A stretch of DNA of 64,000 nt, taken from the NCBI GenBank assembly GCA_035529435.1, contig DATKWS010000113.1, positions 13,001-77,000 on the forward strand, read 5' to 3'. This stretch comes from Patescibacteria group bacterium (GTDB lineage Bacteria; Krumholzibacteriota; Krumholzibacteriia; Krumholzibacteriales; Krumholzibacteriaceae). This document shows positions 11,636-46,044 of this stretch, one piece after another. Position 1 is the stretch's first letter; each line of letters opens with the position of its first letter. Made by a program: the position numbers and the translations under genes. The notes beneath the pieces are model-generated. The model did not search any database and had not been told where the DNA came from. It saw only the letters and a list, made by a program, of their open reading frames with translations.

Positions 11636-14600
11636 CTAAGATTTAAGTATTATATGTAGTAGATTTTCTTCGACTTTCGGATACAGGGCATCGATTTCCT
11701 TCTGGATTTCGATGGTCCTCTCGAGCGCGGTGACGATGCGGCAGTAGGTCTTTATATCGTCCATGCCGAGCTGCCGCTCGCGGCGATCCTTGAGCCACTT
11801 CTCGCAGACCTGATACCCGCCGATCTGATATTCCCAGACATCCCGCCGAACCGGAGCGAAGTACTGTGTCTTGTTGATATAAACACGTTCTTCTTGTGGA
11901 TCATACCGGAATCCCGTGTTCTTGTTCTTTGCAACGCTATTGTCGCCTTTTCCTTCGAATTGGGCTGAAGGTGTATCGAGCTCTGGCGAATTGAGCAGAT
12001 GCAGGGAGGTCAGTCTCATCCCCAAAGCAGCAAGTATCCGAAAGAGCTTAGTGTCCGTCGTGAACGGCAAGCGTGGGAAATCCATCCGCAGAAACTCAGA
12101 GTATTTCGTGCGGTAGGCTGGGGAGTAGAGGACTGCGTATATGTAGTTAAAAATCTCCTCGGGCGCTGGTTCCCCACCGTATGCCTGCGCCAGCGCTGCG
12201 ACGAACTTTGGATTCAGGTTCAGCTTGCGTTCGGACGTCTCGTATTGCGAGAAAAGGGCGCTGCGGTCGGCGGTGGGGTAAAGGTACAACGGAAAGAGAA
12301 AAGCATTATTGGAAGTCTTCGGCGAAATCAGGATTTTCTCCGAAATATGTTGCGTCACGAGAGCGTGCCTAAAGGACTCTCCTTTTGTTAATCGTGATGT
12401 AATGAGCGCCAGATTTTCCCCCGCAAGCATGTGGCGCATGACTTTCGGACGGGGCATGCAGATGAAACCGCGCGACCGCCCAGTATAATAAGTGAAACGT
12501 TTGTCGAAAGGACGGTAGAGGATCGGGACAATCTTATCCTCGGTCGGTCCGGACTCCAACAAGTCCTTTTGTGCTAGTGCCACCTTCCAATCTCGTGAAT
12601 CTTTGCTTAGACCATATCCTTGACGAGCCAATTCAGGGTCCATCCTCGAAAAGACAGTCACTGTTTTCCATAGCTCTTTCGCAGACCAATGGATTGTCAA
12701 AGCGTCACGTGCTGTGAATAGACCTACAACATTCACAGGAAATATCTCGGGTACGCACTTGAACCGTCGGTACATGGTTCCGAGCGTATGGTCATGCGGC
12801 ACAAACAAATAAAATGGTTGCACAGGCTTTAAATCTGTCCACTCGGTTTGCTTCAGTTGATGCATGTTAAGCCAGTCATATTTTCTGTCTCTTAATCCCC
12901 ATAGGTCAACATTCCTAACAACGGCATCATTCTTCTCTTTACAGCCATCCTTGATGAAAAAGGCAATAGCTACCCCCTGCCGAATGTCGAAGACGTTTTG
13001 ATCATGGCTGCCGTCCGGGCAGCTTTCTTTTTTAAGTGAGTTTCCGTGTAGATTAAGTATGTAAATTTCGTCGAATGTTCGCATAAGGCTTTGGCGCATG
13101 CCTCGGAAGGTTGGGTTATCTAGATATGAATGATTCGTAATCATTCCAAAAACCCCGCGACCTGCCTGCTCGATCTTCCACTGAGCAAATCGCAGGAACT
13201 TCACATAGTCGTCTTGAAGCCCCCTTGGATTCCTTTCGCCGAGTGGTTCTCCGTCCACCTGCTTATAGTCGTCTATTAGGCCTGTTATCCATTTCCCTCT
13301 ATTAGATGAATCATACGAATACGGTGGATTCCCCAGCACAACGAGTATCTTCTGCTCCTTCTTGACCTCCCCGGCGAGGTGGGATTCCTCGGCAAGCGAG
13401 GAGAAACCGGGAAGGCGGCTCTGCTCGAGCTCCTCCATATCAAGCGTATTGGTCAGGTAGAACTTCACGCGCTCGTCATCGGCGAGACGGTGACCGAGTT
13501 CTTCGAGAAAAAACGACATTTTCAAGTGCCCAACGGCGTACGGCGCCATCATCAGCTCAAAAGCATAGAAGTTTTTCAGGATATGATTGCGTATAAATTC
13601 CTCCCGCCCGCCGGAGCCGTACTTTGCCTCGAATTCTTTGACCGCCTCCTGGGCGGCGCGCGCGACAAAGGTCATCGTGCCCGCCGCGGGATCGAGCAAT
13701 GTGACCCCCTCGGATGCGAGCCCGTCGGGCATATCGAATTTTTCTTTGAGAATATGATTCAGCGATCGGACGATATATGACACAACCGGTTCAGGAGTGT
13801 AATAGACCCCCCGGCGCTCGCGTTCCTCGGGATCGTACCGGGCCAGGAATGTCTCGTAGAAATGAACGATCGGATCGCTTCCCTTCCCCTCGTGATAGTA
13901 GCGATCGAGGAGTCCGGGAGCATCCGCGACTGCCAGGACCCCGGAGATATCATCCACGATCCATTCGAGCTCGGCGGGCGGCTCTTCCAGTGAAATGAAC
14001 CGGAACACATCACGCAGAATGCCGATGGTATGCGGTATCTTGTAAAATGCCGCGCGGCGGTTGAATCCATCCCCCGAGCGCGTCCGCGCCGCAAAGAGCC
14101 CATAGGTAATCGTCTGCGCGTAGAGATCGGCGAAGTCGTGCGGCGTGAGCTCACCGATCAGGTACGTCCGGAACGTCTCGTAGAATCCGAGCAGCTTTCC
14201 CTCCGAACCCGCCTGCTCCTCGATGAGCTGCTGCTCGGTGACATCGCGCAGGAAGCGCGTGCGTTTCGCCAGCTCCACGGCGAGCGTTTCGGCGTTGTAC
14301 ATTTGCGGTAGTGAAAAATCGAGAAAATGCTCGAGCAATGCCCAAAGCTCGTCGGGCTTCTCGATCGGCGGGGTAGTGCGAACCTGGTTCAGAATCATGG
14401 GCCGCGCCGCCAGCACCGATTCGACGAGCTCCCCGTTTCGGTACAGCCGGAACTCGAGAAAATTGGTGAGGATCAGGTTGGCGAACGTGCCGAGGTAGCG
14501 CTGAAGCTGCCCGGACCGCTCGATTTCGCCCAGCCGCTCCTCCGTCGGTTTCTTGGCTTCGATATAGCCGATGATCCGGTCCGTGCCGTTCCAGATGCGG

Positions 14601-34548: not shown

Positions 34549-35451
34549 CTAGTCTTCCAGGAGTTCTTGAAACCGCTCCTCGGCTATGGCGGCTTCCTCG
34601 CTGTAGGGATATTCCTTGCGCAACCGTTTCACCACACCGGCGGCTATCTCCTCCTCACCGATCTGTTCGTACGCAATGGCCATTCTGAGAAGTACGGCCG
34701 GCACCTTCCTGCCCCGCGGGTACTGCTGGAGAATCAGGGCGAACTCGTTGAGCGCATCGAAGTATTTCTGTTGCTCGATAAAACTCTCTCCCCGTATGAA
34801 CCGAACCTCCTCACCGAGAGGATGGTCGGGATACGCGTCGAAAAAGACGTCCGATTCCTCCAGCGCGAGCTGGTAGTCCCTCCGGCTGAAATCGAGGTAG
34901 ATCTGACGGTGAATCTCCTCCGGTGGGGGAACGGATGATCCGCCGCCCAAACGGATCCGGGTGGTATCCGCCTCGGCGAGTCCCGGACCCGTCGTCACAC
35001 CGGCCGTGTCGGGGTGGATCGCATCGATGCCGGGCACCCCCTCCCCCGTTACGCCCTCACCCGCAATCCCGCCGCCGGCCCCCAACGAATCGCCCACCGC
35101 GGTCCTTCCCGATGCCGGTGGACGTGGCTCGTACCGGTAGGTGCTGGAAACACCCATCTCGGCGAGCGCCTGCTGGAGCGCATTGATCTGATCCTTGAGT
35201 TCCTCGAGATCGAGCTTCAGCTGCGCGTTGAAGGACCGGCCGATCTGCTGCTGCTCCACGAGCGTCTTCTCGAGCAGGTAGACGCGCCGCTGGAGTTTCG
35301 CATTCTCCCCCAGCAGCGAGTCGATCTTGATCGAGGACTCGATCGTTTCGCGCGGCATCTGGACGAACTTGCGCCCCCAGCAGCCCCCGAACAGGACGGT
35401 CCCCATAATCAGGAGCATGCACGCTCCACCGAGATTTCGCTTCATGTACAT
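34549..35451 (-). CDS. ybgF: Tol-Pal system protein YbgF/CpoB (coiled coil + TPR)
   Basis: Signal peptide, N-terminal coiled coil (LQRRVYLLEKTLVEQQQ), and a C-terminal TPR-like region (YQLALEE...AYEQIGE). Immediately downstream of pal. Confidence 0.7.
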   Translation of the reverse strand: MYMKRNLGGACMLLIMGTVLFGGCWGRKFVQMPRETIESSIKIDSLLGENAKLQRRVYLLEKTLVEQQQIGRSFNAQLKLDLEELKDQINALQQALAEMGVSSTYRYEPRPPASGRTAVGDSLGAGGGIAGEGVTGEGVPGIDAIHPDTAGVTTGPGLAEADTTRIRLGGGSSVPPPEEIHRQIYLDFSRRDYQLALEESDVFFDAYPDHPLGEEVRFIRGESFIEQQKYFDALNEFALILQQYPRGRKVPAVLLRMAIAYEQIGEEEIAAGVVKRLRKEYPYSEEAAIAEERFQELLED

Positions 35452-35461
35452 TATCCGGTCG

Positions 35462-35980
35462 CTACTGAATCACCATGTGCGCGCGGCGGTTCTTCGCCCA
35501 CGCCGTCTCGTCGTGTCCGAACGTAAAGGGCCGTTCCTCCCCGTAGCTCACCATGGAGAGGCGCACGCTCGGAATGCCGTACGCGGTGTAGAAATCCATG
35601 ACCGCCTTCGCGCGTTTCTCCCCCAGAGCGAGGTTGTACTCGTTGGTTCCGCGTTCATCACAATGGCCCTCGATGAGGATCTTCGCCTCAACGTCAGCGA
35701 GTATGAGCTCCGCGTTCTGAGACAGTACCTTTTTGTATTCCGCCTTGATATCATACTTGTCGAAATCGAAAAAGATGTCGTTGAGAACGATCGGCTCTAT
35801 CTCTTCTTCCTCGATATCCACGGGCTCCTGTTCCTCCATCTCCACGGGAGGCGGAGGAGGAGGTGCGATCTCCTCGATCGGTTTTTCCATCTCTTCCACC
35901 GGAACAGTTACCTTCTTGGCACATGAAGGAAGCACGAGCATGAGAGCGAGCACGATTACCAACCATCCATACCGTGGCAT
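35462..35980 (-). CDS. pal: peptidoglycan-associated lipoprotein Pal (OmpA-like domain)
   Basis: Lipoprotein signal ([20 protein letters not shown]). The OmpA_C region carries the [12 protein letters not shown]...[24 protein letters not shown] motif. Start placed at the Met preceding the signal peptide, with a GGAGGTGAA RBS. Confidence 0.8.
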   Translation of the reverse strand: [172 protein letters not shown]

Positions 35981-36216
35981 CCAGTTCACCTCCGTGTTTA
36001 GGATCTCCCACCCTTCTCTGCGTACCATTCTCCCTCGACCTCTCGAACGAAAGCGCGCCACTCCTTCAATCCGCTTCCCGCCGGCCCCGCCGAGAGGATC
36101 ACCACGATCGCGCCGGAGCGCGAATCGCACCGGAGAGTATCATACCGATATCCCGTCCGATTGAAAACAGAAAATTACATATTTTTTTACCACCCCCGAT
36201 CGCCGGCCCGCAACCG

Positions 36217-37479
36217 CTACCGGTCCTCTCCCCGGTCCGCGGGAAGCAGGGACCAGGCTGCCGATTCACCCTGGACGAGGCGGCGCTTGTTCCCCGACTC
36301 GGTGTCGATGACCACGATCCACGGATTGCCGCCGTAACGCACCGTCGCCGCGAGATGCCTCCCATCCGGCGCCCATACCGGATCCTCGTAACTCAGATAG
36401 TCCTCGAACAGCGTGTCCTCCACCATGCCGTCGGGGGTGATGAGCCTCAACCGGTACAGGTCGTTTTCCCGCGAGACATAGGCGATCGCATCCCCGGTCG
36501 GCGACCATGCCGGCGATGTATTGTACGAGCCGCGACGCGAGAGGCGTCGCACGCCGCCGCCGAAACGATCCATCACGTATATCTGCGGCGTCAGCGTCCG
36601 ATCGCTCACGAAGGCGATTTCGTTCCCGTTCGGCGACCACGCCGGCGAACAGTCGATGGCGCGGTTCCTCGTCAGGCGCCGCACGATCTTTCCCGCCGAG
36701 TTCACGAGATAGATCTCGCTGTTGCCGCTCACGCTCAGCGACATGGTGATCTCGTCGCGGCCGGGAAAGTAATCCCCCGCCACGTTCAGACCCTTCCGGT
36801 GGGATATCATGTACCGTTTTCCGTGCGCAAGATCGACGAGGTAGCAATCGGGGTTGTCCCGCCGGTACGACGTGAAGCAGAACCGCTGATCGTCGAGCCA
36901 GACGGGAGAAACGGCGAGTTCCCCCGTGGTGATCTGCCGTTCTCCATTCCCGTCGTAATCGATAACGAAGAGATTCTTTACATCCCCCTCCCTCCTGCAG
37001 AAGAGCAGCCGCGTCGTCGCTATGCCCTTTTCACCGATCAGGAAGTAACAGATCTCGTCGCTCAGCCGGTGGGCGACCGCACGCTCGGCGTCCCGCTCGA
37101 ACCGGTACCGTTTGCTGAAAATGATCTCCCTGCTGGAGAAATCGAGCAGGTTCGCATCGAGTACGTACCCCTCCCCGCTTCGCGCCAACGCCCCCTCGAA
37201 CAGCGCCGCCGCCGTCACTCCCCCCCCGAGCGAATCGACCGTGCCGGTTACACGGATCGGCTCGAAGACATCGGTATATTCGAGATCCTTGATCAGCACG
37301 GTCGTGATGTAGCGGGCAATCCTGTCGACAGTTGCAACGGCCGGCTCGATCTCATTGACCACGATCGGTATCTCGCCGCGGCCGCCCTTCTCGGTCTGCA
37401 GGTAGATATCGGTCTGAGCGAACACCGCCCGGGGCAGCAGCGCGAGTACCATGATCATTACCAGTGCACGCATGTTCAA
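36217..37479 (-). CDS. tolB: Tol-Pal system beta-propeller protein TolB
   Basis: Signal peptide, N-terminal TolB_N-like region, then repeated PD40/WD40-like SP.WSPDG / AWSPNG / PAWSPTG / PVWAPDG blades. Confidence 0.85.
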   Translation of the reverse strand: MNMRALVMIMVLALLPRAVFAQTDIYLQTEKGGRGEIPIVVNEIEPAVATVDRIARYITTVLIKDLEYTDVFEPIRVTGTVDSLGGGVTAAALFEGALARSGEGYVLDANLLDFSSREIIFSKRYRFERDAERAVAHRLSDEICYFLIGEKGIATTRLLFCRREGDVKNLFVIDYDGNGERQITTGELAVSPVWLDDQRFCFTSYRRDNPDCYLVDLAHGKRYMISHRKGLNVAGDYFPGRDEITMSLSVSGNSEIYLVNSAGKIVRRLTRNRAIDCSPAWSPNGNEIAFVSDRTLTPQIYVMDRFGGGVRRLSRRGSYNTSPAWSPTGDAIAYVSRENDLYRLRLITPDGMVEDTLFEDYLSYEDPVWAPDGRHLAATVRYGGNPWIVVIDTESGNKRRLVQGESAAWSLLPADRGEDR

Positions 37480-38102
37480 TCCCTCTGAACAAAGGTGAAG
37501 TGGATACCAAGATAGGAATCACCGAACGCCTTGGGGAGCGGTGGAAACGGCGCCGAGCTGCGGACGGCCCTGAGTGCCGACCGATCGAAATAGGAGGAGC
37601 CCGAGCCGCGTTCGATCCGTGCATCCCGCACCTGTCCGTCGCGGTCCAGACGGAAGTACACCACGCAGCTCAGTCCCTCGGGGCCGCCCGACGTGCCCGC
37701 AAACCAGTTCTGGGACACCTTGCGTTCGATCGCCTCGAGGTAGTACGAGAAGGGGAAGCGGGGCGCGTCGACGACAAGAGATGTCGTCTCGGGCGTCTCC
37801 TTGCCGACGGAGAGGTCCATCGGTTCCTCCTGCTTCGGCGCCTCCGGTTCCTTCTTCACTTCTTTCTTCTTCTCTGTTTTCGGTTTCGGCTTCGCCGGTG
37901 CAGGCTTTGTTTCCTTCTTTTCCTCAACCACGACCGGCTTTTCGTCGGCCGCCTCCTGCTTCGCCCGCACGACCGGCTGCAGTATCTTGACGGAATAGAT
38001 GCTCCGGGGCAATCGCATCTCGGGAACCACACGGAACAGATAGAACAGGGCGCAGAACATCACGAGATGAACGAGAATGGATATGAAAAGGGAAAGCCTC
38101 AT
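37476..38102 (-). CDS. tolA: TolA/TonB-family energy-transducer (N-terminal TM anchor, Pro/Lys/Glu-rich linker, TonB_C-like domain)
   Basis: TM helix (LFISILVHLVMFCALFYLF). KPAPAKPKPKTEKKKEVKKEPEAPKQEE linker. C-terminal FSYYLEAIERKV...RDARIERGSG fold. Sits between tolR and tolB. Confidence 0.6.
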   Translation of the reverse strand: MRLSLFISILVHLVMFCALFYLFRVVPEMRLPRSIYSVKILQPVVRAKQEAADEKPVVVEEKKETKPAPAKPKPKTEKKKEVKKEPEAPKQEEPMDLSVGKETPETTSLVVDAPRFPFSYYLEAIERKVSQNWFAGTSGGPEGLSCVVYFRLDRDGQVRDARIERGSGSSYFDRSALRAVRSSAPFPPLPKAFGDSYLGIHFTFVQRD

Positions 38103-38120
38103 GCCCCTCCACCACGTGAG

Positions 38121-38519
38121 CTACGACAGATCCTCCTGCTCGGCGATGAGGCCGAGGTCCTCGATACCGAGCATCTTGATCCGCGCGATCACCCGCATCA
38201 TCATTCCGTACCGGGCATCCTTGTCACCGCGGAGAAATATACGGGGCGGGTTGCTTTCAAGTTCTTTGCGCAGTTCGGCCGCGAACTCCTCCCACGCAAC
38301 GGGGCGTTTGCCGATGAAAATGGCCCCGTTCGCGTCGACCGAGATCGTCACACCCTCCTGTTCCTCTATCACCTTCGCTTCCGCTTTGGGTAGATTGAGC
38401 CTGACGCCCGCCTGGAGGAATGGCGCCGTCAGCATGAAAACGATGAGCAGTACCATCATCACGTCGACAAGGTTGGTGATATTCACCTCTGCCAGTGAGG
38501 AATAACGCGTGCGCTTCAT
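38121..38519 (-). CDS. tolR: ExbD/TolR biopolymer transport protein
   Basis: Single TM segment (LVDVMMVLLIVFML). Periplasmic ExbD-fold motif (VTISVDANGAIFIG). Start set at MKRTRYSS. Confidence 0.8.
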   Translation of the reverse strand: MKRTRYSSLAEVNITNLVDVMMVLLIVFMLTAPFLQAGVRLNLPKAEAKVIEEQEGVTISVDANGAIFIGKRPVAWEEFAAELRKELESNPPRIFLRGDKDARYGMMMRVIARIKMLGIEDLGLIAEQEDLS

Positions 38520-38599
38520 GTATGCTCCCTTCGTTTCCCTGACCGGGACCATTCGATCAAAACGGTCCCGATCTCTCCTCTCATCACAATTTGGAGCAA

Positions 38600-39268
38600 T
38601 TACCGCCTTTCAAGGAGACGGCCGCGTAGTCGTGCGGCGAATACCAGCAGTTCGTCCTCCTTGCGGCGAATCACCCTGAGTAGGTAGTTGTACCCGACCA
38701 CCGCCGGGATCGCCGCTCCGAGACCGAAGATCGTCGTGATGAGCGCCTCGGCGATACCCGGACCGACGACGTAGAGGTTCGCCGAGCCGCGAACCCCCAT
38801 ACTGAGAAACGAGCTCATGATGCCCCACACCGTTCCGAGCAGGCCGAGAAATGGGGATATCGTAGCCGTCGTCGCGAGGAATACGAGGTATGATTCCCAA
38901 TCTGAAACGATCCGCGTGATGGTCGAGTCGAGATACTTTTCGATCACGTTGGGATCCCGCAACTCATCGGCATTACCTTCATTGACGACGGCGGAAACCA
39001 GCTGGGCCTCCGCACTGTCGGGAAGCCGCTCCAGGCCGTGATCGAGCCCGGTCAGATGCTTTGTTTCATTGAACAACGAAATAAAATGCGCTCCTTGTCG
39101 CTTTGACCGCCTGAAAAATCTAAATTTTTCCACCATAATTGTCCATGATACGACGGACAGGACGACGAGAATCACCAATATCGTTTTCGCCAGTGCTCCG
39201 GTATGCGCAATCAGCCCGGAGAAACTGTCGGATACCTGAAGAAAGATCGGAACACCCTCAAACCCCAT
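38600..39268 (-). CDS. tolQ: MotA/TolQ/ExbB proton channel protein
   Basis: Three TM segments and the conserved C-terminal LGLLGTVWGIMSSF motif. Start placed at MGFEGVPIFLQ. Confidence 0.8.
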   Translation of the reverse strand: MGFEGVPIFLQVSDSFSGLIAHTGALAKTILVILVVLSVVSWTIMVEKFRFFRRSKRQGAHFISLFNETKHLTGLDHGLERLPDSAEAQLVSAVVNEGNADELRDPNVIEKYLDSTITRIVSDWESYLVFLATTATISPFLGLLGTVWGIMSSFLSMGVRGSANLYVVGPGIAEALITTIFGLGAAIPAVVGYNYLLRVIRRKEDELLVFAARLRGRLLERR

Positions 39269-39650
39269 TGCGAAGCCTCCTTTCCCGACGTCACGGGGCA
39301 CATTACCATTGTACCCAATAGCGGTCAAGTTAGTTTCAATCTGTATCCACTGTGCGAAACGCCGCGGATCGCGTTCCAACGGGAACTTTCCCGCCGCTCG
39401 AACGTAACATACAGTGAGCAAACAAGTAAAGTTCTGCCCCGGTGCGGGCGGGAATACTGAGGGGATACAGGAACAGAATATGCCACTCCTTTCAATCGAA
39501 GAACGATATCGAGAAAGGTTGTTTGATGTGTGTTGACCTTGTAAAAAACGCCGATAACGGTTATACTATGAAAGAGTGGGGATTTCCGACGCCCCGGCGC
39601 GGAAAAACCACATCTGACGGAAAACGCAAAACCACCCCTGCTGAGAAGGA

Positions 39651-41483
39651 GTGAGAACAATGAAACGCCTGCTAACGCTCTTCCTTCTGGCTGTCCTGAT
39701 CGTGTCCCTGTTGTCCATGAATTCCTTCGCCCGTGCGTTCGAGTTGAAGAAATCGCGGAACGTCGCGGCGGTCACCGGGGACGATCTCGATGTGTCCGTG
39801 AGGCTGATAGGCGGCAAGGGCGCCGTGCTGAAGCCGGGACATGCTATCAATATCACCTTCCAAACCAGCAGGGACGCGTACGTCGTGCTGTACAACATCG
39901 ACAGCGAAGGATACGTACACCTGCTCTTCCCCGAGGACGGCAAACCGAAGATGGTGAAGGGACGCACGGTGTACTTTCTGCCCGAACCGGGAGAGGGAAC
40001 CTACTGGGAGGTCGGAGGCACGACGGGCATCGAGTATGTTCACGCATTCGCCGTATCCGATCGCAACATGCTCAAGGAAGAGGAACTCTACTTTCTCGCG
40101 CAGAGCAGAGAACTCGCCGAGGAGAAAAAGCTCAAAATCGACATGGATCCGTTCCTCGCCTTCAACATGATCGATGAAGAGGTACTGGTCGATGCGGCGA
40201 ACGCGGATCCGGCAACGGACTACACCTACTTCTACGTGAACCGCACGGTGGACTATCCGCGGTACCTCTGCGTCAAGTGTCACGGCACGGACAAGATAGC
40301 GGATCCCTATGCGATGGAATGCCCCGAGATCGTAATCGAGCGGGCCGCCTACGAGGAGGATCTGCATTACCCGTACCCGGAAATCTACCAGGTCAGGCAC
40401 GTGGGCGAGGAGGTCGATGAGGACTACTATACCTCGTCCGATTACGCGGAACGGGCAACGGACGATTGGGACGACGAGAACGAAGACAGCAACGTCTACC
40501 TCTCGATATACTACACCGACGCCGATTACCCGTACCGCATGTACTACCCGCACTACCGGTACTACGTCGCGTACCATTACCCCTACTACATGGATTGGTG
40601 GTGGGATTTCGGCTGGTCGTTCTACTGGACCGACTACTATTACTACCACTGGCCGTTCTACTCCTGGTACAATCCGTACTATTACCAATGGGCATACTCC
40701 TACCACTGGAATCCGTACCGGTGGCACGACTGGGATGGCTGCTACGCCGACAACTACCGCTACCGCGGCATCCACGGCGACCGGAATTTCGCGAAACGCA
40801 ACCTGCACTACACATCGACGGTCAACCGCATACGGCGCAAGGAAACGATCCTCGCAAGCCGCCTGACGCAGAAACGCCTCGATACGGCCGCGCGTACGCG
40901 GATCAACAGAACCATGCTGGACAAATCGAGGCTCGCGGACCGCGCGAGGCGGGGGGATGTCACGACCCGCGCGACCCGGTACCGGGATGATGGAACGACC
41001 GCCCGGAACAGGGACATCGAGCGGAGGGTCGTGTATGGGCGCGACAGAATGACGCGCCGGGAATCGACGACGAGATCGAGGGAAATCCGGGAGTCACGGG
41101 ACCCGCGTCTCAGGAAGGACAGCTCGGGCAGGACGATCCAGAGGGGAACCGAACGGACGACCGAGAGGCGCGATACCGGCAGGAACGTGAAACGGCCGAG
41201 CCCGGAACGCGGATCCACGAAGGGCAGGGCGGTCGATAGATCGAAGTCCGGGAAATCGTCCCGCTCGGTCGATAAACCGGCCAAGCGCGATAACACATCG
41301 CCGCGGTCCTCATCACGATCCATCAACAGGAGCTCTTCGACGCGGCAGTCCTCGCCCTCGACCGTGAGGCGCAGCGCCTCATCGAGCGGACGGTCCACGC
41401 CGACCCGGTCATCCGGCAGCCGGTCGGGATCATCGGGCGGATCCCGATCGTCGGGCGGGAGCGGTGGCTCCAAGAGAAAATAG
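39651..41483 (+). CDS. secreted protein: DUF4384-like N-domain + acidic stretch + Tyr/Trp/His/Pro-rich aromatic block + ~270-aa Arg/Ser/Thr-rich basic tail
   Basis: Signal peptide MKRLLTLFLLAVLIVSLLS. A VVLYNIDSEGYVHLLFP block typical of DUF4384. Extreme composition: YYPHYRYYVAYHYPYYMDWWWDFGWSFYWTDYYYYHWPFYSWYNPYYYQWAYSYHWNPYRWHDW, then RS/RT/RD repeats running to the C-terminal GSGGSKRK. Confidence 0.6.
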   Translation: MRTMKRLLTLFLLAVLIVSLLSMNSFARAFELKKSRNVAAVTGDDLDVSVRLIGGKGAVLKPGHAINITFQTSRDAYVVLYNIDSEGYVHLLFPEDGKPKMVKGRTVYFLPEPGEGTYWEVGGTTGIEYVHAFAVSDRNMLKEEELYFLAQSRELAEEKKLKIDMDPFLAFNMIDEEVLVDAANADPATDYTYFYVNRTVDYPRYLCVKCHGTDKIADPYAMECPEIVIERAAYEEDLHYPYPEIYQVRHVGEEVDEDYYTSSDYAERATDDWDDENEDSNVYLSIYYTDADYPYRMYYPHYRYYVAYHYPYYMDWWWDFGWSFYWTDYYYYHWPFYSWYNPYYYQWAYSYHWNPYRWHDWDGCYADNYRYRGIHGDRNFAKRNLHYTSTVNRIRRKETILASRLTQKRLDTAARTRINRTMLDKSRLADRARRGDVTTRATRYRDDGTTARNRDIERRVVYGRDRMTRRESTTRSREIRESRDPRLRKDSSGRTIQRGTERTTERRDTGRNVKRPSPERGSTKGRAVDRSKSGKSSRSVDKPAKRDNTSPRSSSRSINRSSSTRQSSPSTVRRSASSSGRSTPTRSSGSRSGSSGGSRSSGGSGGSKRK

Positions 41484-41520
41484 CGCCCCGCCGTACGGCG
41501 AAACGATAGCGTACATTACA

Positions 41521-41560
41521 TCACGCCGCTGCACACACGAACAGCGGCGTGTTTGTCTGT
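41521..41560 (+). terminator. rho-independent terminator candidate (10-bp perfect stem CACGCCGCTG/CAGCGGCGTG + TTTGTCTGTC)
   Basis: Hairpin at 41521-41550, followed by a T-rich tract. About 40 nt after the stop of the 39651-41483 gene, in a convergent intergenic region. Confidence 0.5.
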
Positions 41561-41632
41561 CGGAATCCCCGATCGGTTCGGTTGCAGGGGTAAATGCCGC
41601 TGCGTTCCGACGCACGGCGGCGGCCACCATGT

Positions 41633-42808
41633 TCAGGCGCGCCGGTAGGCATCGAGCAGGAACCGGTACCGCGCGCCCCCCGCAGTATTGATGACGATGA
41701 TCCGGGACGATGGATCGATCGTCCCTTCCGACACGAGCGCCTTGCACCCCGCCCATGCGGCGGCGCCCTCGGGTGATGGGAATATCCCCTCGGATGATGC
41801 AATCTCCCCCACCGCCCGCATGATCTCCTCGTCGGGAACCGCCACGGCCGCCCCCCTGCTTTCCCGCAGTGCGCGGAGAATGAGCCGGTCCGCACGCGTG
41901 GCGGGCACCCGGATACCGGAGGCAACGGTCACCGGATTGTCGAACGGTTCGGCACATTCCGCGCCGCACCGGAACGCGCGGACGAGCGGCGCGCAGCCGG
42001 TCGACTGCACGACGGCGAGACGCGGCTTCGCGCCCTCCAGCCATCCCAATGATTCGAGCTCTTCATACGCCTTCCAGATCGCCACGATCCCGGTTCCCCC
42101 TCCCGTCGGAAACAGTATCCAATCGGGTGACTCGCGGCCACACTGCGCCGCTATCTCGAAAGCGATCGTTTTCTTTCCCTCGACGCGACACGGCTCGCGG
42201 AAGGTGCTCAGAACAGCGGCGCGTTCGAGATGCGGCTCCGCCTCCATACGCCGCGCCGCATCGGGAAGTATACCGGGTACCTCCTCGACACGCGCCCCGT
42301 AGGCGCGGCACTCCTCGGCGACGCCCGGCGGGGTTTCCACGGGTATGAAGATCGTACAGTCGATCCCCGCGGCGGCCCCGTATGCGGCCAGTGCCAGACC
42401 GGCGTTCCCGGCCGACGGAAGATACGCTCTCTTGAGACCGAGGTCACGCAGCCGCGACACCGCCACGGCCATCCCCCGCGCCTTGAATGATCCGGTGGGG
42501 TTTCGGGACTCGTCCTTTATGAAGAGCCGCGGCGCACCGATCGCCGAGCCGAGGCGCCGCGCGTGCAGCATCGGCGTATTTCCCTCACCCAGCGAGACCT
42601 CTTCGCGAAACGGCGGGAGAAGCCGCCGGAACCGCCAGACACCGGGTCCATCACCGAAGAATGCTATGCGGTCGACGTTCTTCCGTACGAGTCCCAGATC
42701 ATAGACGGCGAGGAGCGGAGAGGCGCACGCGGGACACTCCCCGGCGCGGGAGCCGGCCGGAACCTCCCGTTCGCATCCGCTGCACCGGTATCCATCGAGA
42801 ATCTGCAT
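41633..42808 (-). CDS. thrC: threonine synthase (PLP-dependent, with N-terminal Zn-ribbon)
   Basis: N-terminal CSGC...CPAC zinc ribbon. PLP-Lys motif SFKARG. GNAGLALAAYGAAAG glycine-rich loop. Confidence 0.8.
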   Translation of the reverse strand: MQILDGYRCSGCEREVPAGSRAGECPACASPLLAVYDLGLVRKNVDRIAFFGDGPGVWRFRRLLPPFREEVSLGEGNTPMLHARRLGSAIGAPRLFIKDESRNPTGSFKARGMAVAVSRLRDLGLKRAYLPSAGNAGLALAAYGAAAGIDCTIFIPVETPPGVAEECRAYGARVEEVPGILPDAARRMEAEPHLERAAVLSTFREPCRVEGKKTIAFEIAAQCGRESPDWILFPTGGGTGIVAIWKAYEELESLGWLEGAKPRLAVVQSTGCAPLVRAFRCGAECAEPFDNPVTVASGIRVPATRADRLILRALRESRGAAVAVPDEEIMRAVGEIASSEGIFPSPEGAAAWAGCKALVSEGTIDPSSRIIVINTAGGARYRFLLDAYRRA

Positions 42809-42849
42809 GGTACCTCCCGAAGCTGCTTGAAAAGAATCGTGTATCAGTT

Positions 42850-43662
42850 ATGCTTATCCGGCCCTGCGTTGTCAACGAAACTATCGATGTCATGGAGTGG
42901 ATATCTCGATCCGGAATCCTGCTCGGCACCGTCCCCGCCCTCGGGGCCGTGGCGCCCGAGCTCCGCGTCTGGTGCACATCACGGCCGGGCGGCACGAGCC
43001 CCCATCCCTACGACAGCCTGAACCTCGGATCGGGGACGGGAGACCGGCCGGAACATGTTCGTGAAAACCGGCATCGGCTTCTGAGTGTGCTCGCCATTCC
43101 ACCGGAGCGCGTCGCACGCTGCGTCCAGGTGCACGGTTCGCGTGTCGCGATCGTGCATGGTGGGGGTACCCGGCGCGAAACGGACGGTCTCATCACGACG
43201 GCGAGGCGCCTCGCCCTCGCGATCAGTACCGCCGATTGCTACCCGGTGGCCGTGTACGCGCCCTCGGAAAAGGTGCTGGCGGCCCTGCACGTCGGGCGGA
43301 GCGGCGCCGCGCTCGGTATCATACGAACGGCCATCGAAACGATGGAGGACCGCTACTCGATAGATACACGGGGGACCCTCGCCGTCATCGGGGCCGGAAT
43401 CTGCAGGCGGTGCTACACCGTGTACCCGGAAACGGCGGCCCGCTTTCCCGCGAAGTACATTCACCGGCGCAACGACGCGTACTATCTCGATCTGCTTTCA
43501 CACTGCACAAACCAGCTCCTCGAGGGCGGATTGAAACGGCGCAACATCTTTCGCGCCGATCTCTGCACATCCTGCAATCACGAACTGTTCTACTCACACC
43601 GCCGGGATCACGGCAGAACCGGCCGGCACTGGATGCTGGCGATGATCGAACCGTCACCCTAG
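42850..43662 (+). CDS. pgeF: peptidoglycan editing factor PgeF / YfiH (DUF152, laccase-domain purine nucleoside phosphorylase family)
   Basis: Blocks PYDSLNLGSGTGDRPEHVRENRHRL, TADCYPVAVY and CTSCNHELFYSHRRDHGRTGR align with E. coli YfiH. Start chosen at the ATG at 42850. Confidence 0.7.
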   Translation: MLIRPCVVNETIDVMEWISRSGILLGTVPALGAVAPELRVWCTSRPGGTSPHPYDSLNLGSGTGDRPEHVRENRHRLLSVLAIPPERVARCVQVHGSRVAIVHGGGTRRETDGLITTARRLALAISTADCYPVAVYAPSEKVLAALHVGRSGAALGIIRTAIETMEDRYSIDTRGTLAVIGAGICRRCYTVYPETAARFPAKYIHRRNDAYYLDLLSHCTNQLLEGGLKRRNIFRADLCTSCNHELFYSHRRDHGRTGRHWMLAMIEPSP

Positions 43663-43973
43663 CGTCCGCGCCCCCCCAGCTTCCTTCTGACAGATTCGAT
43701 CTTTCCCTGCATCGTCAGGGGCGCATCGAGCCGGTCATCCACGATCACGGTCGTCAACACACGCTTGGCTCCATGCTCGAAAGGGACATGATGCATCCGC
43801 CGGACGGCCTCCAGGATGACCGTGAGGTCCCCCTCGAGAATCGTCGCCATCGGTGTCAGCTGAAACTTCACGCCCTCCGTATGCTCCAGTATCTCCTGGC
43901 ACTTCGCCACAGAGGAGCTCATGCTGGTAGAACCGGTGCCGACCGGAACGACCGAAACGGAACAGACCGCCAT
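43659..43973 (-). CDS. MTH1187/YkoF family (DUF77) thiamine-binding-like protein
   Basis: About 104 aa starting at MAVCSVSVVPVGTGSTSMSS. Typical DUF77 ferredoxin-like tandem half-domain. Confidence 0.65.
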   Translation of the reverse strand: MAVCSVSVVPVGTGSTSMSSSVAKCQEILEHTEGVKFQLTPMATILEGDLTVILEAVRRMHHVPFEHGAKRVLTTVIVDDRLDAPLTMQGKIESVRRKLGGRGR

Positions 43974-44174
43974 AATGCACCTCCACCGTACTGCTCGCCA
44001 CCCGCTCCCGCGCGCCGGAATACCCTGCGGCACGAGCCGGAGCGGCCGAGGCGCGGGTCGGAGATCCCCCGCACCAACCGATCAAACTCCCATACATCGT
44101 ACCAATGATCTGATTGACTTCGCCACCCTTAACCGGTATTCTCACCCTGCGATCATGCGAGAGAGGACGGATCG

Positions 44175-45326
44175 ATGCGCGGTAAGACAACGGATGAGAT
44201 AAAACCCTTCATCGTCATGGACGTTCTCGAACGGGCCCTCGCGCTCGAGCGGACCGGCCGTTCTATCGTGCACCTCGAAATCGGCGAGCCCGATTTCGCC
44301 ACGCCGCCCGCAATCGTCGACGCCTGTATCGAGGCGCTGAAAAATGGAGAAACCCACTACACGGACAGCAGGGGAATCCCGGGTCTCCGTGCTGCAATCG
44401 CCTCGTACTACGAACGACGCTACGGCGTGAAGATCACCGAAGATCGGGTTCTCGTCACGATGGGCGTCTCCCCGGCGCTCCTCCTCGTCCTGTCTATCCT
44501 GATAGAGGAGAATGGCGACGAGATCCTGCTCGGTAATCCGTACTATCCCTGCTACCCGAATTTCATCAGGTACATGCATGGAACGCCGCGCTTCATCTTT
44601 TCGGAGGCGGCGGACGGATTTCAGCTGAAACCGGCGGCCGTCGAAGGGGCGATCACCCCGAAGACGCACGCGATCATGATCAACTCACCATCGAATCCTA
44701 CGGGTACGCTGATGCCGCGCGACGACCTCGAGGCGATCTGTAATCTGGGCGTGGCCGTCATCAGTGACGAGATATACCACGGGCTCGTATACAACGAAAC
44801 GGAACATACGGCCCTGGAGTTCACCGAGAACGCGTTCGTACTGAACGGATTTTCCAAGCTCTTCGCAATGACCGGGTGGCGCCTCGGATACATCATCGCC
44901 CCGAAACGAGCCGTGAGACGCCTGCACATACTTCTCCAGAACATTTTCATATCACCGAATGCCTTCGTACAGCACGCGGGAATAGCGGCATTAACCAAGA
45001 AACACCCGGAGATCGAGGAAATGAGGCAGAAGTACGACGCCCGCCGGCGTTACCTGCTTCGTGAACTCCCGAAACTCGGGCTCCGGTATGCATTGGAGCC
45101 GAGAGGAGCATTTTACTTCTTTGTTGATACCTCTCATATCGACAATGATTCGCTCCGGCTCGCCTTCGACATACTGGAGAAAGCGGACGTCGCCCTCACA
45201 CCCGGCATCGATTTCGGAGACCGCGGCGAGGGTCACCTGAGGATATCGTATGCGAATTCGCTCGTGAACATCACCGAAGGCGTGCGGAGACTGGGCGTCT
45301 ATCTCACCGAGCGCGGTGCGCTGTGA
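44175..45326 (+). CDS. class I/II pyridoxal-phosphate aminotransferase (aspartate aminotransferase family)
   Basis: INSPSNPTG and NGFSKLFAMTGWRLGY (PLP-Lys) motifs. 383 aa. Confidence 0.8.
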   Translation: MRGKTTDEIKPFIVMDVLERALALERTGRSIVHLEIGEPDFATPPAIVDACIEALKNGETHYTDSRGIPGLRAAIASYYERRYGVKITEDRVLVTMGVSPALLLVLSILIEENGDEILLGNPYYPCYPNFIRYMHGTPRFIFSEAADGFQLKPAAVEGAITPKTHAIMINSPSNPTGTLMPRDDLEAICNLGVAVISDEIYHGLVYNETEHTALEFTENAFVLNGFSKLFAMTGWRLGYIIAPKRAVRRLHILLQNIFISPNAFVQHAGIAALTKKHPEIEEMRQKYDARRRYLLRELPKLGLRYALEPRGAFYFFVDTSHIDNDSLRLAFDILEKADVALTPGIDFGDRGEGHLRISYANSLVNITEGVRRLGVYLTERGAL

Positions 45327-45363
45327 TCGCGGCGGCCGGCAACGGGAAAAAGGGGGAGAACGT

Positions 45364-46044
45364 ATGAAACACACTATCCGGCTGGCAGCGGCGGCCCTCA
45401 TCGTCATGGTCCCCTGGACAGCCGCGCGATCCTTCCCGATCGGCGTCTCGGCGCGCGCGGGCATCGGCGTCAGTTACTACTCGATGACCGAGCTGGACGA
45501 TCATTTCGCCGTCGTCGCCCGCGACTTCGACATGATCATGCCGGAGCTGTCGAAGGGCGTGAACGTGATGCTGCAGGGACGGGTATGGTTTTTCGATTTC
45601 ATCGCGATCTCGGGCGGCTTCGCGCACTTCTGGGGCGAATCGAAACTCGATATCGGTGAAGTTTCTCCCATCACCTACAAGGCGCCGGCGAACGTGTACA
45701 CGATCGGAGGCGCGGTGCGCGCATTCTCCGTCACCGATGTGCTCGATGTCAACCTCGGGATCAACGGCTGCTTCGCGAAATCGACATTCGGCACCAACCT
45801 GTTGACGCCGCGCAGGCTGAGCGAGTACAAGGGAAACGATTGGGGATTCGAGCTGATCGCGGAGGCGGCCAGCAACTTCCTGTATCCCGTCGAGATCGGC
45901 GTTCAGATGGGGTACCGCCGTCTCACGGTGGACCACTTCGAGGACAAATTCGGTGATACCGCCCTCTTTCCCGAATCGACAACGGAGATCAAGCTCGATT
46001 ACGGCGGTCCCTTCCTTTTTCTCACCGCGGGCATACGCCTGTAA
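45364..46044 (+). CDS. secreted hypothetical protein (beta-rich, possible outer-membrane protein)
   Basis: Signal peptide MKHTIRLAAAALIVMVPWTAARS after the ATG at 45364. Alternating hydrophobic pattern. No family recognised. Confidence 0.45.
   Translation: MKHTIRLAAAALIVMVPWTAARSFPIGVSARAGIGVSYYSMTELDDHFAVVARDFDMIMPELSKGVNVMLQGRVWFFDFIAISGGFAHFWGESKLDIGEVSPITYKAPANVYTIGGAVRAFSVTDVLDVNLGINGCFAKSTFGTNLLTPRRLSEYKGNDWGFELIAEAASNFLYPVEIGVQMGYRRLTVDHFEDKFGDTALFPESTTEIKLDYGGPFLFLTAGIRL

Follow-up and report, generated by a model that had tools for sequence, protein, structure and literature searches.

The Tol-Pal system is a core envelope and division machine that has been studied almost entirely in Proteobacteria. 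DUF4384 (PF14326), by contrast, is a family of uncharacterised function, and its domain has usually been described in fusion to kinases, to caspase-like proteases or orthocaspases, or to Csx30 (bioRxiv 10.1101/2022.08.17.504292; 10.1101/2025.01.12.632604; PMC7475262). Here we describe a gene that brings the two together. It lies on the + strand at 39651–41483 of a 64,000-nucleotide stretch, hereafter the window (positions 13,001 to 77,000 of contig DATKWS010000113.1, assembly GCA_035529435.1, deposited as a Patescibacteria group bacterium and placed by GTDB in the Krumholzibacteriaceae), and it encodes an exported DUF4384 protein transcribed divergently from a Tol-Pal cluster. A literature search for DUF4384 returned no description of this architecture, of the YPRYLCxxCH...PY...C module that the protein carries, or of a linkage to Tol-Pal. 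We tentatively favour reading the product as a soluble, Sec-exported periplasmic envelope protein associated with Tol-Pal, in which an aromatic block would be interfacial, a basic tail would bind the envelope and a folded head would bind a partner.

A conserved gene family under purifying selection

The open reading frame (ORF) is listed from a GTG codon at 39651, which gives 610 residues. An ATG at 39660 is the likelier start because the homologues all begin MK(R), and a Shine-Dalgarno sequence, AAGGAG, can be read 8 nucleotides before it (39646–39651, +), with GAAGGAG kept in homologous loci. The coding sequence so defined, 39660–41483 (+), comprises 607 codons plus stop; residue numbers below refer to this product unless the 610-residue form is named. 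A 607-residue database match, P0001, was reported at 100% identity.

The ORF is a genuine gene of a conserved but uncharacterised family. A search of 5.8 billion non-redundant proteins yielded 107 homologous clusters, nearly all of 550–680 residues, at 38–81% identity and ~90% coverage; the only name attached to them is “DUF4384 domain-containing protein”, from Candidatus Krumholzibacteriota metagenome-assembled genomes (MAGs). All homologues found carry PF14326; in every full-length member the modules follow one order and the C-terminus is K/R-rich. The aromatic maximum of the full-length members, 45–70% over 60 residues, falls near residue ~290, and the family tails contain 21–36% K/R (mean 27%) and 23–49% S/T/G (mean 42%), with a net charge of about +18 to +70 among the full-length members and of +15 to +56 in the tally that gave the means. 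Relative to an orthologue of 78% identity, the ratio of nonsynonymous to synonymous substitution rates (dN/dS) is 0.185 overall; by region, it is 0.17 for the beta-sandwich, 0.097 for the CXXCH module, which is the most constrained region, 0.13 for the acidic patch, 0.17 for the aromatic block, 0.14 for the basic helical segment and 0.26 for the tail. Purifying selection acts on all six regions (0.10–0.26).

A profile search extended the family. Against 1.84 billion representative proteins, it gave 2441 matches at E<=1e-3, 640 at E<=1e-10 and 121 at E<=1e-30. About 60 representatives possess the full architecture; most other matches cover only profile positions ~31–225, that is, DUF4384 and the CXXCH module, and most of these module-only proteins still show aromatic-rich segments (30–55% over 60 residues) and basic tails. 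When a single genome was scanned for each GTDB species, MAGs labelled Krumholzibacteriota, Latescibacterota and Chitinivibrionia (Fibrobacterota), together with unnamed bacteria, proved to have the full architecture; the module-only form turned up in Gemmatimonadota/Longimicrobiales, in Eisenbacteria and in a few bins that bear the label Gammaproteobacteria. An AT-rich uncultured bacterium (L087) encodes a 452-residue relative without the CXXCH site, with a Tyr/Asn/Ile-rich aromatic block and a Lys/Ser/Asn-rich tail; since the design is kept with Lys in place of Arg, the composition is selected and not an artefact of GC content.

These data also bear on a trivial explanation, namely that the low-complexity C-terminal half is frameshifted or non-coding read-through, or that the minus-strand ORF at 39672–40808 is the real gene. 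Long antisense ORFs are indeed present, as is common in GC-rich DNA: 39672–40808 (−) and 40808–41473 (−), of 378 and 221 residues, lie wholly within the span of the gene. Full-length homologues with one module order nevertheless recur in more than 100 clusters from independent assemblies, the K/R-rich C-terminal end is conserved, and the Pfam domain and signal peptide both lie in the + frame. The + frame dN/dS of 0.17 over the aromatic block and 0.26 over the tail marks the ORF at 39672–40808 as a shadow ORF. Together, the homologues and the + frame selection rule out the artefact, which we regard as vanishingly improbable, and they bear out the sequence-only reading, which had preferred the plus-strand protein and had taken non-conservation of the aromatic or RS-like region as the sign of a frameshifted or artefactual ORF. 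Both antisense ORFs are shadows of GC-rich coding sequence, and a gene finder might mis-call them.

Linkage to the Tol-Pal cluster

Divergent from the gene, the minus strand at 34549–39268 carries a Tol-Pal cluster with Pfam matches to MotA_ExbB, ExbD, TonB_2, PD40, OmpA and TPR_6/YfiO. Its members are tolQ (38600–39268), tolR (38121–38552), a tolA-like gene (37476–38102), tolB (36217–37479), pal (35462–36130) and a gene for a cpoB-like TPR protein (34549–35451), all on the − strand. The tolQ start, ATG 39268 with GGAGG upstream, was read from the intergenic alignment; the longest tolQ ORF (38600–39421, from TTG 39421, 273 residues) is probably too long, as the ATG gives 222 residues and homologues have 222–248.

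The arrangement is the same in every orthologous contig examined directly. We searched 80 genome loci with the TolQ, TolR, TolA, PALP and YfiH proteins of the window, and in the orthologous group of the window gene tolQ-tolR-tolA lie directly upstream and divergent wherever enough upstream sequence is available, with one apparent exception, L016, in which the gene abuts tolB-pal instead of tolQRA. In L043 only a TolA-like match was found, and in L019, whose upstream region was not examined, the locus search gave no tolQRA match. Tol-linked orthologues span 78% to 27% identity and include MAGs labelled Latescibacterota and Chitinivibrionia; the linkage is kept at 27–35% identity (L051–L062, L065), where the downstream PALP/YfiH synteny is gone. 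A linkage that outlives general synteny is the usual signature of functional association, and a functional tie to tolQRAB-pal across divergent lineages is what the gene order suggests here.

The association is not a property of DUF4384 proteins at large. No tol genes occur within 3 kb of the module-only homologues L064–L086 (Gemmatimonadota, Eisenbacteria and others), nor within 3 kb of a paralogous type with aromatic block and basic tail in L063, labelled Krumholzibacteriia. Linkage to tol genes is thus a specific feature of this aromatic-plus-polybasic orthologous group. At three module-only loci labelled Gemmatimonadota, Longimicrobiales and Gammaproteobacteria (L069, L074 and L077), where the homologue is not beside tol genes, other neighbours were observed. 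In L074 and L077 it is divergent from DUF58-like and BatA-type genes (N-terminal double transmembrane segment plus VWA in the latter, judged by eye only), a pair typical of MoxR-type operons, and in L069 a BatA-like gene stands alone upstream.

Export signal, head domain and charge segregation

Residues 1–26 (39660–39737, +) form a Sec signal peptide, with MKR, a hydrophobic core and A-R-A before F27. N-termini of the MK(R)-hydrophobic-AxA-like type are present in 57 of the 57 aligned homologues, and neither a lipobox nor a twin-arginine motif was found at the N-termini of the window protein and the aligned family members. The hydrophobic core is the sole segment of the protein with a low cost on the translocon scale (near 0 kcal/mol) and, outside the aromatic block, the only one favourable on the octanol scale.

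The signal peptide is followed by a beta-sandwich domain (residues 40–195; 39777–40244, +), acidic in character, which contains DUF4384 (nucleotides 39828–40052), two helices and an extra strand. The Pfam match is secure (E=2.3e-13, 50.4 bits against a gathering cutoff of 27, profile positions 2–77 of 81; residues 60–134 of the 610-residue form), and the fold of the head is macroglobulin/FnIII/Ig-like. NCBIfam gave nothing at E<=1 for the protein, models for the C-terminal domain (CTD) of type IX secretion system (T9SS) cargo included, and PDB sequence searches with the family profile and with the isolated CXXCH module returned only low-complexity or insignificant matches. Beyond the CXXCH module, described below, lies an acidic patch (residues 251–279; 40410–40496, +) with 13 D/E in 29 residues and a charge of −12; the family mean is 37% D/E. 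The signal peptide, the DUF4384-like domain and the acidic stretch had all been proposed by the sequence-only reading, and each holds up: the first is Sec-type, has an AxA-like cleavage site and is shared by the aligned homologues, the second scores above the gathering threshold, and the third is the patch just delimited.

The mature protein is thus laid out as a block polyampholyte, in which the head and acidic patch (residues 27–279) carry a charge of ~−28, the aromatic block ~−5 and the last 242 residues +46. This segregation is kept family-wide, with a mean of −24 for the head and acidic patch and of +47 for the basic half.

The aromatic block and the basic tail

The aromatic block (residues 280–365; 40497–40754, +) comprises 86 residues, of which 28 are Tyr, 11 Trp, 3 Phe, 5 His and 6 Pro; Tyr and Trp make up about 45%. 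Its best 60-residue window is 63% Y/W/F/H, against 27% in the next-best ORF among all ORFs of the window, and 52% Y+W alone, against 15%; the family mean in the block is 52% +/- 6% Y/W/F/H. The block had been described as about 90 residues of almost only Y/W/H/P/F: its existence and length stand, whereas “almost only” overstates the case, as 8 Asp are also present. Conserved motifs (VYLSIYY, PFWWD..WWDFGW and YYYHHWPFYSWY.P) run through it, and P291, P297, P332 and W336 are conserved in at least 90% of the family alignment.

Hydrophobicity scales disagree on this block. Interfacial free energies on the Wimley-White scale run from about −5 to −15 kcal/mol per 19 residues and attain exceptional values near −15 across ~50 consecutive windows, and the octanol scale is also favourable; on the translocon (Hessa) scale, all 19-residue windows in residues 290–358 cost +15 to +25 kcal/mol. 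The latter values rule out a transmembrane helix, and with favourable interfacial but unfavourable translocon energies the block would be interfacial rather than transmembrane, so that its binding to a membrane interface would be expected.

A conserved basic segment follows (residues 366–435; 40755–40964, +), predicted to be helical, with the motif R.IYA.R...KR.L.Y..T......R...L..SRL...R; in the family alignment, R369, R375, R380 and Y384 are at least 90% conserved. AlphaFold2 (AF2) places helices at residues 384–434 with predicted local distance difference test (pLDDT) values of 53–78, and their amphipathicity is weak. Three homologues (P0072, P0083 and P0091) have 2–3 tandem copies of KR(G)xLDYxSTRVKT, which corresponds to residues ~375–390 and occurs once in the window protein; this repetition suggests a short linear binding motif.

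The remaining residues, 436–607 (40965–41480, +), form a predicted disordered polybasic tail with 40 Arg, 39 Ser, 18 Thr and 17 Gly among 172 residues, an isoelectric point (pI) of 12 and the terminal sequence SKRK; its AF2 pLDDT is ~35, and Arg accounts for 76–80% of its basic residues. The whole basic region, residues 366–607, thus spans 242 residues with a pI of 12.0 and a charge of +46. The sequence-only reading had described an extremely basic Arg/Ser/Thr-rich tail of ~270 residues, built of RS/RT/RD repeats and resembling eukaryotic RS domains and protamines. The composition stands and the length does not. The repeats did not survive scrutiny either: RS/SR dipeptides number 19 in the tail, against 19.5 +/- 3.6 in 2000 shuffles, and the tail contains no run of (RS)2 or longer. 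Adjacent basic pairs number 9, against 13.6 +/- 2.7 expected, with a mean spacing of 3.5 between basic residues. The likeness to RS domains and protamines is therefore compositional, with neither RS enrichment nor Arg clusters, and shuffling rules out a periodicity of either kind. Recent repeat expansion was likewise rejected, as the gene holds no DNA tandem repeat beyond one 23-nucleotide trace. What was rightly called highly unusual for a bacterial exported protein is the combination of an aromatic block and a polybasic tail in a Sec-exported DUF4384 protein.

The composition of these two regions invites two further explanations. The first, proposed from the sequence alone, is an extracellular matrix, adhesive or polyanion-binding protein acting on extracellular DNA, polyphosphate, mineral or other cells, as a biofilm scaffold, adhesive or mineral nucleator. 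Mussel-foot and silaffin-type adhesive or mineralising proteins are also rich in Tyr and cationic residues, and by analogy the composition of the window protein and its tail charge of +46 could suit such a role; some Krumholzibacteriota have, moreover, been implicated in iron cycling (PMC7914226). Such roles would, however, require crossing of the outer membrane, and no recognisable signal for this was found (no NCBIfam or T9SS CTD match; no autotransporter, beta-barrel or lipoprotein features). The gene is present in one copy per locus behind a housekeeping-like conserved promoter, it is strictly linked to tol-pal rather than to biofilm, exopolysaccharide or secretion genes, and the RS-domain and protamine likeness is compositional. 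Extracellular roles are thus less likely than first thought, and we consider them unlikely. We also considered, and discarded, a parallel with the Fibrobacter basic terminal domain as a lineage-specific sorting signal: earlier work has proposed a folded T9SS CTD for that domain (PMC6851124, PMC3079729), and the window protein matches no T9SS CTD model, has a tail predicted to be disordered and lacks the folded C-terminal domain of ~70–90 residues (TIGR04183-type) of T9SS cargo.

The second explanation is a self-assembling periplasmic condensate or gel held together by the charge blocks and by Tyr/Trp (pi)–Arg (cation) “stickers”, a proposal that overlaps with the tentatively favoured envelope reading. 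Tyr-Arg interactions and charge blockiness promote phase separation in FUS-family and Ddx4-type proteins, and the block-polyampholyte layout (−28, aromatic block, +46), the Arg-dominated basic residues of the tail and the Tyr/Trp content of the aromatic block, with both regions predicted to be disordered, are consistent with a similar behaviour. The argument is purely one of composition, though, and Lys, which AT-rich relatives use, is a weaker sticker; the short motifs conserved in both the aromatic block and the basic helix suggest specific contacts over generic stickiness. We hold a condensate to be about as improbable as an extracellular role.

A conserved CXXCH module

Between the head and the acidic patch, the sequence-only reading had overlooked a module (residues 196–250; 40245–40409, +) with the pattern YPRYL-C204-x-x-C207-H208-(x6)-DPY-(x3)-C221-PE, in which C204-V-K-C207-H208 is encoded at 40269–40283 and C221 at 40320–40322, followed by YPYP. 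In the family alignment A1, C204 never varies, and conservation reaches at least 90% at C207, H208 and C221; AF2 confidence in the module is only about 50. Among 219 family proteins of at least 400 residues, 173 have CxxCH and a third Cys 10–18 residues on, after [DN]PY. The variants are instructive: CxxCY in which Met substitutes for the third Cys (6 proteins) or the third Cys is lost (another 6), a four-Cys form that has Asp/Glu/Gly instead of His, an additional Cys in place of R201 and the downstream Cys retained (about 10), two Cys only (a few), and loss of the entire motif (13). One subclade reads YPCYLCGEC[DE]G..C, with His swapped for Asp/Glu and a fourth Cys gained. The Cys count is even whenever His is lost, so C204, C207, H208 and C221 are functionally coupled.

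The pattern can be read either as a c-type haem attachment motif or as a Cys3His metal site. A c-type haem protein would have thioethers at C204 and C207 with H208 as proximal and C221 as distal axial ligand, and would act as a periplasmic redox sensor or in electron transfer; the Tyr/Trp block might then serve radical or electron hopping or oxidative cross-linking, which would fit an envelope location. The CXXCH motif does lie in a Sec-exported protein, and exported CxxCH with a third Cys recurs in the 173 members counted above, from lineages labelled as five phyla, in what is the most constrained region of the protein. H208 and C221 are lost together in the two-Cys variants, as for an axial-ligand pair, and the odd Cys count speaks against simple disulfides. 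Many multihaem cytochromes, OmcS, Cyc2 and cbb3 oxidase have been reported in Krumholzibacteriota MAGs (PMC11495043, PMC7914226), so the maturation machinery exists in the phylum. A sub-threshold match to the Tll0287-like family of His/Cys c-haem proteins, at E=0.16, is a hint only. The Ccm and Ccs systems require little beyond an exported, unfolded CXXCH.

Several observations pull the other way. No cytochrome family or recognisable domain or fold was detected around the motif, the AF2 model is unconfident there, and Pfam searches at E<=10 with the isolated CXXCH module, the Gemmatimonadota module and the aromatic-plus-helix segment gave nothing significant. Neither ccm/ccs genes (CcmC/CcmF/CcsA WWD motifs) nor other or multi-CXXCH proteins were found in the 64-kb window or 87 loci, a sample too small to be informative. 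Whole Tol-linked subclades have lost either His or the motif altogether, with all other features retained, so the function that the family shares does not depend on a cofactor. The four-Cys subclade looks like an exchange of a Cys3His for a Cys4 metal site, or like two disulfides. We accordingly rate haem attachment as doubtful, a little above the extracellular and condensate proposals. A structural or redox-switch Cys3His metal site able to evolve to Cys4 or to disulfides is possible; the Cys4 subclade, the undetected cytochrome-like fold or family and the retention of all else in Tol-linked subclades without the site each count in its favour. It would not be a canonical CCHC zinc knuckle (C-x2-C-x4-H-x4-C), as the observed spacing is C-x2-C-H-x10-18-C.

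The module also occurs outside DUF4384 proteins. In a MAG labelled Eisenbacteria (L064), a 182-residue predicted lipoprotein (1398–1946, +) directly upstream of the DUF4384 homologue combines the same YYCYDCHGYRYFDPYYDFC module with Tyr-rich sequence and a basic tail rich in K/S/G but has no DUF4384, showing that CXXCH...PY...C can stand alone. In four bins labelled Gammaproteobacteria (L077, L081, L083 and L085), the module, PHDYPRFLCYQCHGFRPMFDWNPY..., is nearly identical to that of Longimicrobiales/Gemmatimonadetes MAGs (L074–L076), and L077 shares near-identical neighbour genes with L074 as well, which suggests that the four are mislabelled or mis-binned; a fifth such bin, L073, resembles a different Longimicrobiales type (L079).

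A model for the protein in the envelope

Taken together, a model for the window protein emerges. The lack of a lipobox and of an NCBIfam match, and an aromatic block that is not transmembrane, make the periplasm the default location. There, the aromatic block would partition into the interface of the periplasm-facing leaflet; the polybasic tail would bind anionic envelope material, whether the head groups of phospholipids, the carboxylates of peptidoglycan or the acidic head of an adjacent copy; and the folded macroglobulin/Ig-like head would bind a protein or glycan partner. The protein could thus act as a peripheral tether, or “glue”, that aids cohesion of the outer membrane and cell wall in concert with Tol-Pal.

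A number of points weigh against this proposal. The whole neighbourhood is syntenic within Krumholzibacteriota, so that adjacency to tol genes is informative only from more distant lineages, and adjacency is not interaction. AF2 yields no structure for the aromatic block (pLDDT ~30), whose interfacial binding is argued from hydrophobicity scales. Sec translocation of a tail of charge +46 is energetically awkward, and the protein may be exported past the outer membrane by an unrecognised route. The conserved CXXCH site, lastly, suggests redox or sensing chemistry for which a pure tether has no use.

A bolder proposal would make use of that site: a new Tol-Pal accessory, spanning several candidate phyla and carrying a covalently bound His/Cys-ligated haem or a redox-switchable Cys3His site, would rely on Tyr/Trp-Arg stickers to make a glue or condensate that lies between outer membrane and wall and responds to redox state. 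We regard this combination as quite unlikely, less probable than any of the alternatives above save the artefact. Were it true, a redox-responsive glue would be a new physical principle of envelope tethering in diderms without Lpp; there is a modest chance that a genuinely new principle of envelope tethering or redox sensing is at work.

Short of that, the family points to an unrecognised envelope component. That Krumholzibacteriota, Latescibacterota and Fibrobacterota-related lineages share a conserved extra gene tied to Tol-Pal suggests a different way of building or stabilising the envelope in these uncultured phyla. The protein offers, in addition, an extreme case of charge-segregated, aromatic-plus-arginine disorder that would work outside the cytoplasm, useful for ideas on phase separation, membrane interfaces and adhesion. 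The YPRYLCxxCH...PY...C module, unannotated in hundreds of protein clusters, Gemmatimonadota and Eisenbacteria included, may represent a novel small domain for haem or metal and offers a first testable biochemical handle on DUF4384 proteins.

Expression signals and neighbouring genes

Two conserved blocks stand out in the 391-bp region between tolQ and the DUF4384 gene, in an alignment of intergenic regions from five loci whose proteins are only 46–78% identical. The first belongs to the gene itself: a promoter scan picked up a sigma70-like promoter at 39537–39567 (+), with a −35 box TTGTAA (39539–39544), a 17-nucleotide spacer and a −10 box TATACT (39562–39567), which would give a 5′ untranslated region (UTR) of ~90 nucleotides; CCTTGTAAAA and TATA(A/C)T are invariant in the alignment. 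The second, at 39298–39337 on the − strand (+ strand GCACATTAnCATTGTAC..GGTCAAGTTAGTTTC), has columns invariant across the five loci, lies 30–70 nucleotides upstream of tolQ and is probably the tolQ promoter or operator.

Downstream, a probable intrinsic terminator (41522–41561, +) has a 10-bp stem, CACGCCGCUG/CAGCGGCGUG, followed by UUUGUCUGU. The GC-rich hairpin itself occupies 41522–41551; a simple terminator scanner caught only a 5-bp version of it, and the fold z-score of the region is −2.5. The previously noted “strong terminator hairpin” is thus present, followed by a U-rich stretch, but a terminator of moderate strength is the plausible description. Rfam gave zero matches on 37000–44000, a span that takes in both the intergenic region and the 3′ UTR. 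A PALP (threonine-synthase-like) gene at 41633–42808 (−) converges on the DUF4384 gene. Further along, the gene at 45316–46044 (+) encodes a protein of a ~225–242-residue type with an N-terminal hydrophobic segment and no Pfam match, and its position after an aminotransferase gene is conserved in L001–L004 and L007.

Comparison with known systems

With other DUF4384 proteins, the window protein shares a domain preceded by a signal peptide and hence located outside the cytoplasm; it differs from them in its CXXCH knuckle, aromatic block, polybasic tail and linkage to Tol-Pal. The resemblance of its head to Vibrio cholerae RbmA and to macroglobulin domains, at an identity of only ~10–15%, is a generic beta-sandwich match compatible with many functions. 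His/Cys ligation is known from low-potential sensor or sulfur-chemistry haems, and with His/Cys-ligated c-type haem proteins (Tll0287, TsdA, the SoxA haem) the protein has in common an exported CXXCH and a nearby conserved Cys that co-varies with His, but beyond the weak Tll0287 hint it shows neither a PAS nor a cytochrome fold.

Eukaryotic RS domains, protamines and Bacillus subtilis CotG are, like the tail, Arg/Ser-rich, disordered and highly basic. The window protein departs from RS domains in being exported, beyond the reach of cytoplasmic kinases, from protamines in having no clusters of consecutive Arg, and from CotG in having no CotG-type tandem repeats. Indolicidin, tritrpticin and the MARCKS effector domain combine aromatic and cationic residues, a recipe for binding anionic membranes, and by analogy the window protein may pair interfacial aromatics with cationic residues to similar effect; those examples, however, are peptides of 13–25 residues or cytoplasmic segments, whereas here the two ingredients are separate exported blocks of 86 and 242 residues.

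Among Tol-Pal components, CpoB (YbgF) and similar accessories parallel the window protein in being Sec-exported, predicted soluble and periplasmic, with a gene tied to tol-pal across lineages. CpoB is a coiled-coil and TPR protein without sequence or fold similarity to the window protein, a CpoB-like gene is already present in the cluster, and the window gene is transcribed divergently from its own promoter. A hypothetical, functional analogy can be drawn to Pal, OmpA and Lpp: the role proposed here, like theirs, is to bridge membrane and wall non-covalently within the periplasm. These tethers use a lipid anchor or a beta-barrel together with a folded OmpA-like peptidoglycan-binding domain; the window protein has neither, and would instead depend on its interfacial aromatic block and its disordered, polycationic tail.

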